Origin: Candidatus Pampinifervens sinense
GTDB taxonomy: Bacteria > Aquificota > Aquificia > Aquificales > Aquificaceae
Length of the DNA stretch: 64,000 bases
NCBI GenBank assembly: GCA_037927135.1
Contig: JAXSPP010000007.1
Span: 32,001 to 96,000, forward strand
Reading direction: 5' to 3'
Shown here: positions 14,792 through 22,900 of the stretch, in pieces
How positions within the stretch are numbered: position 1 is the first letter of the stretch
Layout of the letters: every line of letters starts with the position of its first letter
The notes under the pieces: generated by a model
What the model saw: the letters and a program-made list of their open reading frames with translations, nothing else
What the model was told of the DNA's origin: nothing
Database searches by the model: none
Translations under genes and position numbers: made by a program

Positions 14792-15246
14792 GAAGGGTTC
14801 TATTTTTCCTTTTATTGATTGCTTCCTTTGCCTTTTCACAGCCCATAGTGGGTGAAGGAGACCAGCTTACTTACGAAAAGGACAGGATAATCTATACGGG
14901 CAATGTAAGACTCACAAGGGGCAACGCCCTTTTGACAGCCAACAAGGTGATCATATACCTTGATGAAAACAGAAAGGCAAGGCTTATGGAAGCGGAAGGG
15001 AATGTAAAGTATGTGGAGGGAAACAGAAGGGCCTTTGCGGACAGGATGACCTATGACCTGAGGGAAGAGGTTATAACCCTTAGGGGTAGGGCAAGGGTGG
15101 AGGAGGGTCCAAACTTTGTGGAGGCAGAGGAGATAGTTTACTATAAGAAGGAAGATAGGGCTGTGGCCACAAGCAAAGGTTCAAGGGTGAGGACCTTTTA
15201 TGTGGAGGAAAAGGATGAAAAGGGCAGACCTAATAGAAAGCCTTAG
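14788..15246 (+). CDS. lptA: LPS transport periplasmic protein LptA
   Basis: Signal peptide; OstA-type YTGNVRLT, AEGNV, ITLRG.A. Confidence 0.85.
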   Translation: MRRVLFFLLLIASFAFSQPIVGEGDQLTYEKDRIIYTGNVRLTRGNALLTANKVIIYLDENRKARLMEAEGNVKYVEGNRRAFADRMTYDLREEVITLRGRARVEEGPNFVEAEEIVYYKKEDRAVATSKGSRVRTFYVEEKDEKGRPNRKP

Positions 15247-15490
15247 AAGGGAGTTTAGGCTTAGCAGGGAAGAAGCAAAAAGGTTTGTAGATTGCTTTTT
15301 TGAAGAGTTGGTAAATATGGTGGTAGAAAAGGGAAGGGTGGAACTGAGAGGCTTTGGTGTTTTTAAGCTAAAGAGCCTTAGCGGTAGGTTTATAAAGAAT
15401 CCAAAGACGGGCATTGAGATGTATGTGGAAGAAAGACACAGCATAAGCTTTAAGCCTTCAAGCCTGTTTAAGAAGAATGAGAAAGGTTGA
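15215..15490 (+). CDS. HU/IHF family DNA-binding protein
   Basis: VELRGFGVF, NPKTG, FKPS; GGAGG SD before ATG 15215. Confidence 0.9.
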   Translation: MKRADLIESLRREFRLSREEAKRFVDCFFEELVNMVVEKGRVELRGFGVFKLKSLSGRFIKNPKTGIEMYVEERHSISFKPSSLFKKNEKG

Positions 15491-16533: not shown

Positions 16534-17382
16534 ATGGACTTTTTAGGAAAAGAACAATCACCCTTAACCTTTGAAGAGTGGAACCAGCTGGAGAAGGCTA
16601 TAATTGAAGTTGCGAAAAAAACGCTTGTATGTAGAAGGTTTATGCCCGTTGTTGGCCCAATAGGTGTGGGCCATCAGGTAATATCTTATGATGTTTACCT
16701 TGGTGTGGAGCCAGGTGTATGTGAAGTAAGACCTGGGGAGGAAAGCGAACAGTGTGAGCCTGTAAGGACTGGAAGAAGAAGGCATATAGTCCTTCCAACC
16801 ATATACAAGCCCTTTAGTATAAGCTGGAGGGATTTAGAATACTACAGGCAGTTCAACCTTCCCATAGATACATCTCAAGCTGCTGCGGCAGCCTTTGCCA
16901 CAGCGGTGGCGGAGGACACTCTCATAATACATGGAAATCAAAAGCTGGAGATAGAGGGCCTTTTGACGGTGGAGGGAAGGCAAAGTATGTCCATGAGCGA
17001 TTGGGATGTGGTGGGCAATGCCTTCAACGATATATCCCTCGGTATAGCCAAGCTTTCGGAAAAGGGCTTTTACGGAGACTACTACCTTATACTAAACCCA
17101 AAGGACTACTTTAAGCTAAACAGGGTATATCACAACACGGGCCTTTTGGAGATTGAACAGATAAGAAAGCTTGTAAAGGATATATACTACACGCCCATAA
17201 TGCCAGAATCAAAGGCATTGCTTGTATCGGCAGGACCACAGAATATGGACATAGTCATAGGCCTGGACTTTAGCCTTGCCTATGTGGAATCTACCAACAT
17301 GGTGCATCACTTTAGGGTTATGGAGATAGTGGCACCGAGGATAAAGAGGCCTGGGGCCATACTGGTGATAGGGGAGAAGTGA
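16534..17382 (+). CDS. Family 1 encapsulin shell protein (Linocin M18-like)
   Basis: MDFL...PLT.EEW..L, RRFM.V.GP.G.G, F.ISWRDLE, AEDTLI.HG, GLL..EG, MDIVIGLDF.LAY. Confidence 0.9.
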   Translation: MDFLGKEQSPLTFEEWNQLEKAIIEVAKKTLVCRRFMPVVGPIGVGHQVISYDVYLGVEPGVCEVRPGEESEQCEPVRTGRRRHIVLPTIYKPFSISWRDLEYYRQFNLPIDTSQAAAAAFATAVAEDTLIIHGNQKLEIEGLLTVEGRQSMSMSDWDVVGNAFNDISLGIAKLSEKGFYGDYYLILNPKDYFKLNRVYHNTGLLEIEQIRKLVKDIYYTPIMPESKALLVSAGPQNMDIVIGLDFSLAYVESTNMVHHFRVMEIVAPRIKRPGAILVIGEK

Positions 17383-19226
17383 AGGAAAAGTGGAAGGTAA
17401 TAGAAAGGCTACTTTCTGAAGAGTATGATATTGAGGTACAGGGAAGTTATGAGGGGTGGGGTGCGGGCTACGACCCTAAGTTTTTACCCCTTACGGAGAT
17501 GTGGGCAAAGGGGGAGGTGGAGGATGTGCCGGAGGTGGTAAAGAGGCCAGCGGGGGTGGTCTTTCATATACAAGAGCTTTCAAAAAAATCGGAAGAGGAG
17601 GCCATAAACACCATAAGGCATGAGATTGAATATCTCTTTTCCACAGACCTTTATCTTTGGAGGCTTGGCCAGAGAGAGTTTTACAAGTTTGGCTTTACCC
17701 CCACCTCCTTCCTTGTGCTTTACTCTGTGCTTGAGTCCATAAAGACAGACTCAAGGATAATAAACAGCCATCCTCAAAACCAGTCAACAATCATAAAAAA
17801 CTACGAAGAGATTCTAAAAGAGATAGACACCTACTATCCACATCACAATTTTTCCCTTAGCCTTTTGAAGTCATGGCTTGGAAGGGAAGCCCTTCCCAAA
17901 GATACGGAAAGGATACTCTATGAATACTTGAACTCAAAAAACAGAGAAGCCTACGACATACTTATGGAAGACCTGCTTGGAAAGTATATAGCCCATATAG
18001 AAAAGGCACAAGAGATAAACTATATAGACCTCCTTTTGGATGAGGCGAGGGGAAAGGTAAGAAAGGATGCCCACAAGGGCAGGATAATGACGGACCTTCT
18101 CAAAAAGCTTCCAAAGGCTTTGCAAGAGGTCATAATAGAACACAAGGAAAAGAGGGCTATAGATATACCGGAGGAGAAGAGGAAGGAAATAATAAAGAGC
18201 CTGAGGAACATGCCCGACTGGATGAGGGACTACTTAAAACAGATGTCCTACTTGGATATGATAGAAAGGGATGTGGAGTTTATAAGGCACTTTTTGCCAA
18301 AGACCTTGGAGGTGGATATAGAGCATAGGGGTTTCCTTAGCTTTTTGATAAAGGGGTGGGAGGAACAAAAGAGCACAGCTTCCAGCGGTTTGAGCCTTGG
18401 GGGAAGGTCCGAAGAGAAGTCTCAAGAGGACAGGCTGTATGAAAAGGCCTACGGGATGAACAAGGAGGAGTTTAAGGCCTACAGGAGGATGATATCAAAC
18501 ATATTGCCCTATGTGGAGGCACTAAAGAGAAGGCTTAGAAAGCTAATGCCTGAGGAGGAGGAAGGCTGGTCTGGAAAATACTTTTATGGAAGAAGGCTTA
18601 ACCACAAAGTCCTAAGCTTGGAGGCTTCCATAGGAAGGGGGAGGATGTACATGAGGAGGGAAGAAGGCATAAGAAAGGAGCTTGCCTTTAAGCTTCTCAT
18701 AGATATATCCACATCCATGAAGAGGGAGGAGAAGATAAGGAAGGCTATAGAGGCCCTTCTTTTGTTCTCTGAAGTCATAAGCACTCTGAGGATGCCCTTT
18801 TCCATTGATGTGTTTAGCGACAGGGTGTTTAGATTGAAGGAATTCCATGAAGATTACAAGCTTGTAAGGTGGAGGATTTTGGAGCTTTTTAACATGCTTG
18901 GTGGCGGAACAAACCTTGAAAAGGCCCTCCTTTACGCATATGAAGATATACAAACCTTTTGTAAGAAGAACAACATAAGAGGCTGTATCCTTGTCTTCTC
19001 CGATGGTGAGCCCACAAGGGGCCTAAAAGGAAAAGAGCTAAAGGACCTTATAAACCAGATAAAGGCCATCACACCCATAATAGGCATAGGTGTAGGACTA
19101 GAAAAGAACTATGTGGATTACTACTTTGAAGGCACTGGGATAAAGATAAAGGATGTGTCTGAGCTTACCTTAGCCTTTACAAGGATAATAGAAAATCAGG
19201 CAAGGAGGCTTCTGGCCTTTCAATAA
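17379..19226 (+). CDS. vWA (MIDAS) domain protein, CbbO/NorD/CobT-like architecture
   Basis: C-terminal LLIDISTSM (DxSxS), GGGTNL (T), VFSDGEP (D), IIGIGVG; GRRL motif before the vWA domain; GTGA overlap with encapsulin stop. Confidence 0.85.
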   Translation: MKEKWKVIERLLSEEYDIEVQGSYEGWGAGYDPKFLPLTEMWAKGEVEDVPEVVKRPAGVVFHIQELSKKSEEEAINTIRHEIEYLFSTDLYLWRLGQREFYKFGFTPTSFLVLYSVLESIKTDSRIINSHPQNQSTIIKNYEEILKEIDTYYPHHNFSLSLLKSWLGREALPKDTERILYEYLNSKNREAYDILMEDLLGKYIAHIEKAQEINYIDLLLDEARGKVRKDAHKGRIMTDLLKKLPKALQEVIIEHKEKRAIDIPEEKRKEIIKSLRNMPDWMRDYLKQMSYLDMIERDVEFIRHFLPKTLEVDIEHRGFLSFLIKGWEEQKSTASSGLSLGGRSEEKSQEDRLYEKAYGMNKEEFKAYRRMISNILPYVEALKRRLRKLMPEEEEGWSGKYFYGRRLNHKVLSLEASIGRGRMYMRREEGIRKELAFKLLIDISTSMKREEKIRKAIEALLLFSEVISTLRMPFSIDVFSDRVFRLKEFHEDYKLVRWRILELFNMLGGGTNLEKALLYAYEDIQTFCKKNNIRGCILVFSDGEPTRGLKGKELKDLINQIKAITPIIGIGVGLEKNYVDYYFEGTGIKIKDVSELTLAFTRIIENQARRLLAFQ

Positions 19227-19825: not shown

Positions 19826-20830
19826 ATGGATAGGTGGGAATCTTTTCTTTTTGAAGTGGCGGAAAAGGCCATAAACTACCAAAAGCTTACAAAGGAAGAA
19901 GCGCTAAACATACTGAGAACACCCGATGAATATGTGGCCCTTATGGTCTATCTTGCACAAAAGGTTAAGAACCACTTTCATCCACCCGATAGGATAGAGT
20001 TCTGTTCTATCATAAACGCCAAGAGTGGTGCATGTTCGGAAGATTGCAAATTCTGCGCCCAGTCTAAGTTCTATAAAACACCTATAAACGTCTATGGCCT
20101 TGTGCCAAAGGAAGAGATAGTGGAAGGTGCCTACAGGGGTGTGGAGTTTGGAGCAAACAGATACTGTGTGGTTCTGAGTGGAAAGTGTGCCACAAGGGAA
20201 GAAGTGGAAAGAATATGCGAAGGTGTAAGGGAGATAAAAAAGGAAGGACTTCCCATAAATGTGTGCGTTTCTGCCGGAACCCTTGATGAGGAGTCTTTAA
20301 GAAAGTTAAAAGAGGCCGGTGTGAGACGTGTAAACCATAACCTTGAGGCATCGGAAAATTTCTTTCCAAAGATAGTGTCCACCCACTCTTGGAGAGAAAG
20401 GTATGAGACCATAAAGAGGATAAAGGCTGTGGGCCTCTCCACCTGTTGTGGTGGCATATTCGGTATGGGAGAAAGCGATGAGGACAGGGTGGACCTTGCC
20501 CTAACTTACAGAGACCTTGAGGTAGACTCCATACCCCTTAACTTCCTTATGCCCATTGAAGGAACACCTTTGCAGAATGCACCGGGCATATCACCCATAG
20601 AGGCCCTAAAGGTCATAGCCATGTTTAGGTTTACAAACCCAAAGGCAGAGCTAAGGCTGTGTGGTGGAAGGGAGCAAAACCTCAGAGACTTTCACGGTAT
20701 GGCTGTGCTTATGGCAAATGCCATGATGGTAGGTGGATATCTCACAAGGGCAGGAAGGGATATAAAGAAGGACTACCAGCTTTTAAAGGATCTAAAGTTT
20801 GAAAGGCTTGTAAAAATAGAACCTGTCTAA
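19826..20830 (+). CDS. bioB: Biotin synthase
   Basis: NAKSGACSEDCKFCAQS radical SAM motif, NHNLE, CCGGIFGMGE, SIPLNFL, GGYLT. Confidence 0.97.
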   Translation: MDRWESFLFEVAEKAINYQKLTKEEALNILRTPDEYVALMVYLAQKVKNHFHPPDRIEFCSIINAKSGACSEDCKFCAQSKFYKTPINVYGLVPKEEIVEGAYRGVEFGANRYCVVLSGKCATREEVERICEGVREIKKEGLPINVCVSAGTLDEESLRKLKEAGVRRVNHNLEASENFFPKIVSTHSWRERYETIKRIKAVGLSTCCGGIFGMGESDEDRVDLALTYRDLEVDSIPLNFLMPIEGTPLQNAPGISPIEALKVIAMFRFTNPKAELRLCGGREQNLRDFHGMAVLMANAMMVGGYLTRAGRDIKKDYQLLKDLKFERLVKIEPV

Positions 20831-21373
20831 TTCTCCCTGTGAATTTCCTCTTTTTCTTTTTCTTTTTTTTATTTTTGTCTTCTATTTAATTAAATTAAAA
20901 ATAATAATAGGACCCCCCGAATTTCACACCCCCTTCGCAAGTGCTTGATTTTCAAGGATTTGCCGAAAAGAAATTTCACACCCCCTATGAAAGCCTTGAT
21001 TTTTCTTGATTTTATGAAATCAGAAAGTCCTTGAGTATCAAGGATTTTAGAAGAATTTCACAATTTCACACCCTCTAATTCTAAGTATGGGTCTTTCTGA
21101 AATTTTTTGATTTTATACCCTGTAAAATTTTTACGGAAAATACAACACTTAGGATGGGGGGTGTGAAATTCCTTCACAGGGTGTGAAATTCTGTCCAAAA
21201 GGTGCATATACCCTGTGAAATTCTTTGTAAAAATTTTACGGAAAAAGCCATACTTAGAAACAGGGTGTGAAATTCTGCCGGGGGTGTGAAATTCCCCTGT
21301 GAAATTCTTTGAATAAAAATTATGGAAAAGGCCATACTTAGGAATAGGGTGTGAAATTCTTTTATGATTTATG
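20831..21373. other. Large non-coding repeat island; candidate chromosomal replication origin
   Basis: Between convergent genes; AT-rich 20848-20910; 4x AATTTCACA (20920, 20972, 21054, 21062) and 7x TGTGAAATT (21162, 21182, 21214, 21266, 21285, 21298, 21350); IHF consensus at 20938-20950. Confidence 0.6.
21118..21360. repeat. Three imperfect tandem units of ~65-93 bp
   Basis: Units start at 21118, 21211, 21295: ccctgt(g/a)aaatt...a(c/t)ggaaaa...acttag...gggtgtgaaattc. Confidence 0.85.
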
Positions 21374-22900
21374 TCATAATGTGGGTGCCTTTTCGTTTAT
21401 CCTGAACTGAAGGGCCTCTGCAATATGGTGGCTTGCTATCTTTTCTTCACCTTCAAGGTCTGCTATGGTCCTTGAGACCTTCAAAACCTTCATATAGCCT
21501 CTGCCTGTAAGGTTTAGCTTCTCAAGGGCACTCCTCAAGAGGTTTTTTGCCTCCTGCGTCATCACACAATACTTTTTCACCTCTTCATTGGTCATACGTG
21601 AGTTATACTTTGTTTTGCTGTTTTTGAACCTCTCCCTTTGGATTTCCACAGCTCTAATGACCCTCTCCCTTATCTGAGCGGATGTTTCTCCCGAACTCAT
21701 ACTAAGAAGCTCCTCCTTTTCCACTGGGTTTACCCAGACCCTTAGGTCTATCCTATCCATTATGGGCCCAGATATCTTGGATTGATAGGCTTTTAGTTGC
21801 ATTGGGGTGCATGTGCAGGCCTTGTATGGGTTTCCATAGTTTCCACAAGGGCATGGGTTCATGGCCACCACAAGCAAAAACTCTGAAGGAAAGCTCACCC
21901 TTCCTCCAACCCTTGAAACGGTAACCTTTCCATCCTCTAAGGGCTGTCTTAGAGATTCTATGGCCTTTCTGCTAAACTCTGGAAACTCATCAAGGAAGAG
22001 AACACCCCTATGGGCTAAGGAAATCTCCCCCGGCTGTGGTATGGTGCCACCTCCCACAAGGGCGGACTCTGAGGCGTTGGTAAGAGGATTTCTAAAGGGC
22101 CTTTTGGTTATTATGGGAGTCTTCTCATCCAAAAGGCCTGCCACGCTGTATATGCGTGTTATTTCTATAGCCTCTTCAAAGGTCAAGGGTGGCATTATGG
22201 TTATGAGCCTTTTGGCGAGCATGCTTTTGCCAGCTCCTGGAGGGCCAATAAGCATTACAGGATGAAAACCCGCTGCCGCTATCTCCATAGCCCTCTTTGC
22301 TTGATGCTGTCCATAGACCTCGCTAAAATCCACATCAAAGCTTTCAAAGTTTGAAAAGACCTCTTGAAGGTCCACCCTTACTGGCTCTTTTTTTATATTA
22401 CCCGCTAAAAAATCCACTACCTCTTTTAAAGATTCAAAGCCATAAACCTCCACACCTTCCACAATGCCAGCTTCCTTTGCGTTCCTCATAGGCACTATAA
22501 AACGCCTATAGCCCAGCTCTTTCAAGGATAAAACCACCGGCAAAACGCCCTTCACAGGGTTTATCTTCCCATCAAGGGAGAGCTCGCCCATGACCACATA
22601 ATCCTCTGGGAAGTCCAAGCCTGTGGAAAGCCTTATGATGCCAAGGGCTATGGGAAGGTCGTAGAAGGTGCCTTGCTTTTTAAGATGTGAGGGAGAGAGG
22701 TTTACCGTTATCCTTTTTACTGGAAGCTGAAAGCCTGTGTTCTTTAGGGCTGACCTTACCCTGTCCTTTGCTTCGTTTATGGCCTTGTCTGGAAGGCCCA
22801 CGATGGAAAACTGAGGAAGCCCGTTGGATATGTCCACCTCCACATCCACCTCAAACCCCTCTATCCCCAAAACCCCACCGCTTTTTATCCTACAGAACAT
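21374..22900 (-). CDS. comM: YifB/ComM family Mg-chelatase-like AAA+ ATPase
   Basis: GLP.F.IVGLPD, ITVNLSP, GPPGAGKSMLA, PGEISLAHRGVLFLDEFPEF, NPCPCG. Confidence 0.92.
   Translation of the reverse strand: MFCRIKSGGVLGIEGFEVDVEVDISNGLPQFSIVGLPDKAINEAKDRVRSALKNTGFQLPVKRITVNLSPSHLKKQGTFYDLPIALGIIRLSTGLDFPEDYVVMGELSLDGKINPVKGVLPVVLSLKELGYRRFIVPMRNAKEAGIVEGVEVYGFESLKEVVDFLAGNIKKEPVRVDLQEVFSNFESFDVDFSEVYGQHQAKRAMEIAAAGFHPVMLIGPPGAGKSMLAKRLITIMPPLTFEEAIEITRIYSVAGLLDEKTPIITKRPFRNPLTNASESALVGGGTIPQPGEISLAHRGVLFLDEFPEFSRKAIESLRQPLEDGKVTVSRVGGRVSFPSEFLLVVAMNPCPCGNYGNPYKACTCTPMQLKAYQSKISGPIMDRIDLRVWVNPVEKEELLSMSSGETSAQIRERVIRAVEIQRERFKNSKTKYNSRMTNEEVKKYCVMTQEAKNLLRSALEKLNLTGRGYMKVLKVSRTIADLEGEEKIASHHIAEALQFRINEKAPTL

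Follow-up and report, generated by a model that had tools for sequence, protein, structure and literature searches.

An origin of chromosome replication has been predicted for Aquifex aeolicus VF5 (DoriC ORI97017010; BUS row of Pelliciari 2021, PMC8287927 Tables S1/S2) and is drawn in Fig. 9B of PMC10325909; no experimental test of this predicted origin was found in the literature searched. A. aeolicus DnaA has been noted to lack a linker helix (PMC10721633). In Bacillus subtilis, the DnaA boxes carry TGTGG on the same strand as the TAG trios (PMC8287927 Table S1), and reversal of the trio-proximal box inactivates the origin (PMC6669920); more generally, the box proximal to the DNA unwinding element (DUE) has been described as facing it in every origin characterised by 2016 (PMC5043019). 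In Campylobacterota, the boxes HHATTCACA and HTWTTCACW have T at position 5 and a degenerate 5' end, both attributed to changes in domain IV of DnaA (PMC5043019). A loop-back arrangement with a bend between boxes 1 and 2 has been described for Escherichia coli and Thermotoga maritima (PMC10325909, PMC10316083), and the published origin call of Hydrogenobacter thermophilus uses the E. coli box with a trio score of 5 (PMC8287927).

Here we describe a locus of Candidatus Pampinifervens sinense (genome G000: 1.55 Mb, 12 contigs, 99.96% complete) within a window, the whole 64,000-nucleotide stretch of DNA analysed, that lies on contig C7. The gap between bioB and comM in this window is very probably the DnaA-dependent chromosome replication origin of this hot-spring member of the Aquificaceae. 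This reading rests on a single dense cluster of boxes, its conservation, canonical boxes at homologous positions in sister genera and an altered domain IV of DnaA.

The element between bioB and comM

The predicted oriC is a 543-bp gap (20831..21373; Table 1) whose ORF-free stretch ranks first on contig C7 and fourth in the genome. An ORF scan confirmed that the flanking genes, bioB and that of a YifB/ComM-family ATPase, are convergent. The initial annotation of the window had described a T-tract and AT-rich block, TAA-TAA-TAG triplets, a GC cluster and four plus seven opposed boxes, and all were recovered where it had placed them, the seven opposed boxes at 21162-21358. TGTGAAATT occurs in the window in 11 exact copies, all between 20920 and 21358, as compared with a mean of 0.72 and a maximum of 4 in shuffles of the window (0 of 100 reached 11). 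Genome-wide the 9-mer was counted 15 times, with 11 copies in the bioB-comM gap, which is thus a single dense cluster and the densest 9-mer cluster of G000 save one simple tandem repeat on C3 (G000:C3:94535; about 15 copies of an ACAAAC-type unit, the sole denser k-mer cluster of the genome). TYCACA cores also reach their genome maximum at the element (13 per 550 bp; runner-up cluster, 6): besides the 11 exact boxes and a one-mismatch box at 20838-20846, a 13th core lies at 21173-21178.

AATTTCACA departs from TTWTNCACA by two mismatches, at positions 1-2. A genome-wide search for a rival canonical cluster found none, TTWTNCACA reaching at most 3 per 550 bp anywhere, and the 31 copies of TTATCCACA in G000 are scattered. 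The element is single-copy in the genome. As had been proposed from the window alone, it is not linked to dnaA, whose single copy lies on contig C1; no box cluster was found beside dnaA in G000 or in any of 31 dnaA neighbourhoods. Two DNA sequencing runs covered all 30 bins of the stretch, in pieces, and two RNA runs gave 0 reads on it, a count that has no bearing on transcription. Elsewhere in the genome, G000:C5:39153-39629 (L030) holds an open frame of 241 aa that weakly resembles the DnaA AAA+ domain and whose product is a candidate helicase loader or Hda-like protein. In the window itself, 16534-17382 is a Family 1 encapsulin shell gene, followed at 17379-19226 by a 615-aa ORF without an NCBIfam match.

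Table 1. Features of the predicted oriC and its surroundings (window coordinates)
Feature	Position	Strand	Remarks
IHF/HU-family gene, 5.4 kb from element	15200..15490	+	Below all family cut-offs; best match IHF alpha
bioB	19826..20830	+	Left flank, context
Predicted oriC, whole element	20831..21378	.	Assigned from anatomy, box counts, conservation and homology
Outer predicted DnaA box, one mismatch	20838..20846	-	AATTTCACA in most relatives; beyond the AT-rich block, CACA end facing away from the block
Predicted DNA unwinding element: T-tract and AT-rich block	20848..20910	.	Nearest-neighbour stacking scan
DnaA-trios: six NAN triplets, last three TAA-TAA-TAG	20893..20910	+	Core TAATAATAG at 20902-20910; trio rule from PMC8287927
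GC-rich spacer, 9 bp	20911..20919	+	Length fixed, sequence variable among relatives
Predicted DnaA box 1 (AATTTCACA)	20920..20928	+	Inverted relative to B. subtilis trio-proximal boxes
Back-to-back IHF-like pair between boxes 1 and 2	20938..20962	.	One perfect, one with one mismatch to WATCAANNNNTTR
Predicted DnaA box 2	20972..20980	+	52 bp (five helical turns) past box 1
Further IHF-like sites (20986, 20989, 21036)	20986..21048	.	One mismatch each
Tandem predicted boxes 3 and 4	21054..21070	+	Starts 21054 and 21062; one-base overlap, 8-bp offset
Central segment between inward-pointing arrays	21071..21161	.	Inverted copies of an A-tract/CCATACTTAG unit; IHF-like site at 21100
Distal array: seven predicted boxes	21162..21358	-	AATTTCACA on minus strand, read as TGTGAAATT; one helical face, best period 10.45 bp
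Palindrome TATGA-N6-TCATA	21363..21378	.	Overlaps comM stop codon; conserved; 7 perfect copies in genome
YifB/ComM-family AAA ATPase gene (comM)	21374..22900	-	Right flank, context

The T-tract and AT-rich block proper spans 20848-20900. By computed stability, the least stable 40 bp of the element are 20870-20909, ending at the trios, and of 34 loci scanned by nearest-neighbour stacking, most have their weakest 40 bp at the trio end. For a basal unwinding system, at least three NAN trios are sought within 16 bp of a box; the element has six, separated from box 1 by the 9-bp spacer. TAATAG is followed by AATTTCACA in 19 of 24 relatives, and the spacer is exactly 9 bp in 18 of these 19 as well as in G000. 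The seven distal boxes, within which an 84-bp duplication (21176-21343) was found, are helically phased (R 0.87, p 0.003), and the distal arrays of seven other loci tested likewise lie on one helical face; no helical phasing was detected for the four proximal boxes (p 0.54). Tandem boxes 3 and 4 are invariant in seven aligned same-genus loci. A second unwinding module after this pair was considered and dropped, as its triplets are not conserved. In several relatives, AAG/TAG triplets precede the outer box on the other strand (window 20838-20860 and homologues), possibly as a second trio set on the opposite strand.

IHF-like sites were scored as those with at most one mismatch to WATCAANNNNTTR, which we take to be the IHF consensus; the element has 6, where shuffles give 1.26 and other regions 0.49 per 543 bp. 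The excess is similar in most relatives of all groups and absent in G055, G058 and genus g9. G000 has two full-length IHF/HU-family genes, both below family cut-offs, and the one at 15200..15490 may encode the bending protein, for which it is a candidate. The terminal palindrome is probably the operator of a regulator. It is present at the element end in 17 of 23 loci of g1 (the genus of G000), 2 of 3 of g4 and 2 of 6 of g9, and in none of 21 canonical-box loci. Another TATGA-N6-TCATA copy stands directly upstream of a gene whose product is presumably similar to cytochrome cd1 nitrite reductase, and the palindrome is listed together with G000 C8:71436, C5:16101 and C5:93295.

Three further motif observations were made in relatives. 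One or two copies of TTATRTTAAC, which resembles a XerD arm or a promoter -10 region and has no paired dif arm, lie past the distal array of g4, g7, g9 and g10 origins (distal end of L229, L242, L231, L001, L051, L172 and L365) and in no g1 or canonical-box origin. Near 558, 978, 1331 and 1342 kb of G083:C1, repeated IHF-like palindrome pairs about 85 bp apart suggest the ends of insertion sequences. A second repeat-rich gap in G034 (L223; G034:C1:849.1-849.5 kb) is iteron-like, with TGTCCCA and TTTGACAAA repeats and IHF-like palindromes.

Homologous elements, box recoding and box polarity

The element was found in 20 of 24 same-genus genomes; in the other g1 genomes listed the locus was present in 22 of 22, nearly always adjoining bioB and/or comM. 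G064, a genome with 5% contamination, has two origin-like loci, L040 and L025, on contigs C80 and C84, and the extra locus, without bioB or comM, is probably the origin of a second organism. With other genes at its flanks, the element also occurs in g7, g9 and g10 and in each of the three g4 genomes examined, and its vertical conservation extends across at least nine genera. Same-genus relatives keep the boxes, trios and CTTGA-N3-TCAAG motifs while the spacers diverge, and in some relatives the distal array has shifted to the opposite side of the AT-rich block. In a comM scan of named genomes (80 loci, with only 2 close relatives), the closest named relatives of the comM-side ATPase were an Aquificaceae MAG (86%) and a Hydrogenobacter sp. 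record (84%), both with the element.

Using a looser trio pattern, we found elements with the same order of parts in g2 and g11, where the boxes are TTATCCACA or TTTTCCACA. The layout common to the sister genera is an AT-rich stretch, TAA-TAA-TAG trios, a GC spacer, a box, an IHF-like pair, a box, tandem boxes and an opposed array. Counted from the trio end, the G000 boxes lie at +12, +64, +146 and +154 with the opposed array from +251, and the canonical-type (TTTTCCACA) boxes of G084/G087 at +12, +64/65, +152 and +160 with the opposed array from +249; an alignment of nine sequences from six genera stays in register at the trios, at the motif that lies between boxes 1 and 2, at box 2 itself and at the tandem pair. 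Canonical triple-box clusters were found in 7/8 g2, 12/19 g3, 3/4 g11 and 32/50 sister-family genomes, and in 0/24 g1, 0/7 g4, 0/2 g7, 0/11 g9 and 0/1 g10 genomes. The latter five genera hold T-type elements instead, canonical and AATTTCACA clusters being mutually exclusive across genera. The strict triple-box patterns missed g4 and G072, which BLAST found, and automatic trio anchoring misplaced or missed loci (e.g. G057, G059, G062, G066, g4 and most g3). The features of an oriC found here are a single intergenic cluster of asymmetric boxes, homologous canonical positions (g2, g3 and g11) and an adjacent AT-rich element, and the canonical boxes at the same positions in sister genera support the initial reading as a probable chromosomal origin with a lineage-specific box. 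With the patterns tried, no origin clusters were found in g5, g6, g8, family f2 or the other order; domain IV of the g5, g6 and g8 DnaAs departs at the conserved DH dyad (G035, G038, G043, G044, G071), and these genera may use other boxes.

The AATTTCACA box is lineage-specific and marks one clade. DnaA domain IV residues, numbered against E. coli domain IV, were surveyed in 49 genomes, of which 2 had no parsed peptide and 1 had no origin locus. Y422 together with E/D400 was present in 30/30 genomes with T5-majority or AA-start boxes and in 0/16 genomes with canonical boxes. These 30 genomes form one clade (support 0.946), so that the correlation between box and DnaA amounts to one event on the tree and gives no independent support. 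Among g1 genomes, those in which residue 436 is aromatic fall on three branches and have more C5 boxes (T5 in 4/14, 5/13, 10/16, 7/11 and 6/8); contrary to a simple 436 rule, g11 combines S436 with C5 boxes. Two other substitutions, R399K and H439Y, were discarded as possible specificity switches, since R399 occurs in T-box genomes and Y439 in canonical-box genomes. A single-sequence structure prediction of DnaA (pLDDT 41) was left out of the analysis. As to the box, the initial annotation was right that it is lineage-specific but overrated its novelty, the TTCAC core having been published for Campylobacterota.

That annotation also missed the inversion of the trio-adjacent boxes relative to the known unwinding module. 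Boxes 1-4 of G000 run opposite to the trio-proximal boxes of B. subtilis: box 1 reads AATTTCACA on the TAG strand and so does not show the B. subtilis-type orientation, with TGTGG on the TAG strand and the box facing the trios. The element would work like a DnaA origin and is filed here as one, yet it fails this feature of the B. subtilis module. We assessed polarity on loci anchored at the AT-rich edge and by pattern counts over families. The canonical arrangement was matched in 21/50 sister-family genomes as compared with 3/89 Aquificaceae, with one match in G000, away from the element; the inverted two-box arrangement was matched in 15/89 Aquificaceae (one of which, G030, has its match outside its origin) and in G000, as compared with 1/50 in the sister family. 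There are counter-cases: in 4 of 6 g2 loci the inverted array is preceded, at +13/14, by a canonical-orientation box, g3, g12 and the g4 loci examined have no box 1, and G057 and G072 carry a canonical-orientation box beside the trios. These cases indicate that box 1 is labile and that the constant trait is the inversion of boxes 2-4. The compact G057 origin (L059) has a central AT-rich block, nearly all boxes in one orientation and trios on both strands, one set with an inverted box and the other with a canonical-orientation box.

In the sister family a helix precedes domain IV of DnaA; it is missing from every Aquificaceae DnaA that we aligned, and g5 carries an insertion unrelated to it. 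The link between polarity and linker is, like the box correlation, a single event. We tentatively propose, as a possible but rather doubtful scenario, that the Aquificaceae have an origin of reversed polarity, in which, on loss of the linker helix between domains III and IV, the trio-side boxes were flipped in place or became reachable only via an IHF-folded loop; a later Y422/E400 change would have recoded the box to AATTTCACA in one clade, with residue 436 tuning position 5, and the DUE-facing rule would not be universal. Aquificaceae DnaA supplied the classic filament structures. If the scenario is true, these A. aeolicus structures would represent a geometry matched to an inverted origin and not the general case.

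Chromosome position, proposed mechanism and alternatives

Skew at fourfold sites was computed from twenty 20-kb samples per genome in five complete genomes. The GC skew maximum fell within 13 kb of the element in G010 (canonical box) and about 50 kb from it in G072 (T-type), with intervals that exclude zero; skews were GC +0.022 and TA +0.055 in G010 and GC +0.021 in G072, where 59% of gene length points away. G050, G034 and G001 were all slightly negative with intervals that include zero, and skew pooled over the sampled genomes was GC 0.000 and TA +0.013. The window's own contig has a terminus-like sign (-0.035, interval -0.074 to -0.006), with 38% of gene length pointing away, and 57-kb bins vary as much across G000 as this own-contig skew. 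A dif-like pattern search of the same genome gave no convincing site.

In the mechanism that we consider most likely for the origin, DnaA would read AATTTCACA via its altered domain IV, and the seven phased distal boxes together with the proximal ones would gather ATP-DnaA. Bends would be introduced by an IHF/HU-type protein at several sites, above all in the interval from box 1 to box 2, and together with the phased distal array they could fold some 500 bp and turn the DnaA oligomer back onto the TAA-TAA-TAG trios. The filament would then grip the trio strand, the AT-rich block (20848-20910) would melt and the helicase would be loaded. Such loop-back delivery appears more likely than straight extension from the adjacent box, given that box 1, inverted in G000, is canonical in some sister genomes and missing from others.

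It is improbable that the gap is instead a DnaA-binding locus of the datA/DARS type, which would titrate DnaA or cycle its nucleotide and perhaps lie in the terminus half, the true origin being at another place. DnaA boxes are combined with IHF sites in datA and DARS2 of E. coli, a pairing also found in this element, which is moreover unlinked to dnaA; the terminus-like skew and gene orientation of its contig and the three sampled genomes without an origin signal fit the same view. Loci of that type, however, do not need a conserved AT-rich block with trios at fixed spacing, no second box cluster is present in a 99.96% complete genome or in the 31 dnaA neighbourhoods, and skew peaks at the element in G010 and G072. 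Binding by another protein (ParB at parS half-sites, a CRP/Rex-type regulator at its half-sites, or a nucleoid-organising factor) would account for the sequence that the box shares with TTTCAC and TGTGA, which we take to be the parS and CRP/Rex half-sites, and the genome does encode a ParB-domain protein and two Crp-family genes. Yet no 16-mer within four mismatches of parS was found on the contig and none closer than three in the genome, the ParB-domain protein scores under the ParB cut-off and no neighbouring ORF was recognised as parA-like, the element has no palindrome of CRP or Rex half-sites at N6 or N4 spacing and no Rex gene was found. Since the same positions are canonical DnaA boxes in sister genera, we regard this explanation, which includes the partitioning or nucleoid-organising site raised initially, as highly improbable.

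Long repeated units with inverted copies, the 84-bp duplication, IHF-like sites at repeated elements in relatives and the two loci of the contaminated G064 assembly are what a mobile-element relic, either a plasmid iteron origin or a MITE, might leave. The initial annotation had listed this reading as well, and it is now largely refuted and most improbable: the element is single-copy, no rep or transposase gene was found among the flanking ORFs scanned, and it has been inherited vertically across its genera with boxes and spacing kept and spacers diverging. A structured non-coding RNA between the convergent genes is scarcely conceivable; the opposed repeats could pair in a transcript, but there is no Rfam match at gathering score, promoter- and terminator-like sites are no more frequent than expected by chance, the relocation of the distal array across the AT-rich block seen in several relatives would be incompatible with a folded RNA, and helical phasing points to duplex DNA.

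Comparison with known systems

The chromosome origin that we predict here is in several respects like that of A. aeolicus, which has the same TAA-TAA-TAG trios and GC run, a module that it shares with the g2 locus L126; the homologous g2 elements share with G000 the IHF-like pair, tandem boxes and opposed arrays. It is unlike the A. aeolicus oriC in that the boxes there are TTTTCCACA/TTATCCACA and are recoded in G000, and in that the trios of the published A. aeolicus module have, 13 bp away, a weak box in canonical orientation, while box 1 of G000 is inverted. The sister family f3, of the same order, has the same trios and a similar spacing of boxes from the trio end, but with canonical boxes in canonical orientation and a DnaA that retains the linker helix. 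The published H. thermophilus call is without the trio/AATTTCACA module and the named Hydrogenobacter record L462 carries a AATTTCACA element, which together indicate that such calls probably need revision.

With B. subtilis incC (boxes 6/7; PMC6669920, PMC10721633), the element shares trios, a GC spacer and an AT-rich stretch, an 8-bp-offset tandem pair (here elsewhere in the element) and helically phased distal boxes acting at a distance. Unlike in B. subtilis, the trio-proximal box is reversed and the origin is unlinked to dnaA; the B. subtilis complex also uses the domain III-IV linker, which G000 DnaA is without. The Campylobacterota boxes (PMC5043019) have the same T at position 5 and TTCAC core, whereas the 5' end is fixed as AAT in G000, the diagnostic residues differ (Y422 and E400 in G000) and the DUE-proximal box of Campylobacterota keeps the canonical orientation. 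The oriC of T. maritima (PMC10316083, PMC10325909), likewise from a thermophile, has a box specific to its lineage as well as TAG repeats; a bending site lies between its boxes 1 and 2, the second of which is inverted, and a loop-back (ssDUE recruitment) model has been put forward for it. In T. maritima the inversion concerns box 2 alone, and its tolerance is ascribed to a long flexible linker; in G000 it extends to every box of the proximal array, and the linker region is shortened.

In the openly accessible article texts searched, neither this box nor the inverted polarity was found to be described. The Aquificaceae and their sister family offer a matched natural series of canonical box with canonical polarity, canonical box with inverted polarity and recoded box with inverted polarity, which would allow tests of the way in which domain IV sets box specificity and of whether the orientation of the trio-side box is of importance, and which bears on the question of in-cis versus loop-back delivery. 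The prediction also locates an origin in a hot-spring clade with almost no skew, in which searches for canonical boxes are unsuccessful. T5 boxes were already known in Campylobacterota, as was a predicted Aquifex origin of this layout; what is new relative to these systems is the family-wide inversion of the trio-side array and its possible tie to the loss of the linker.
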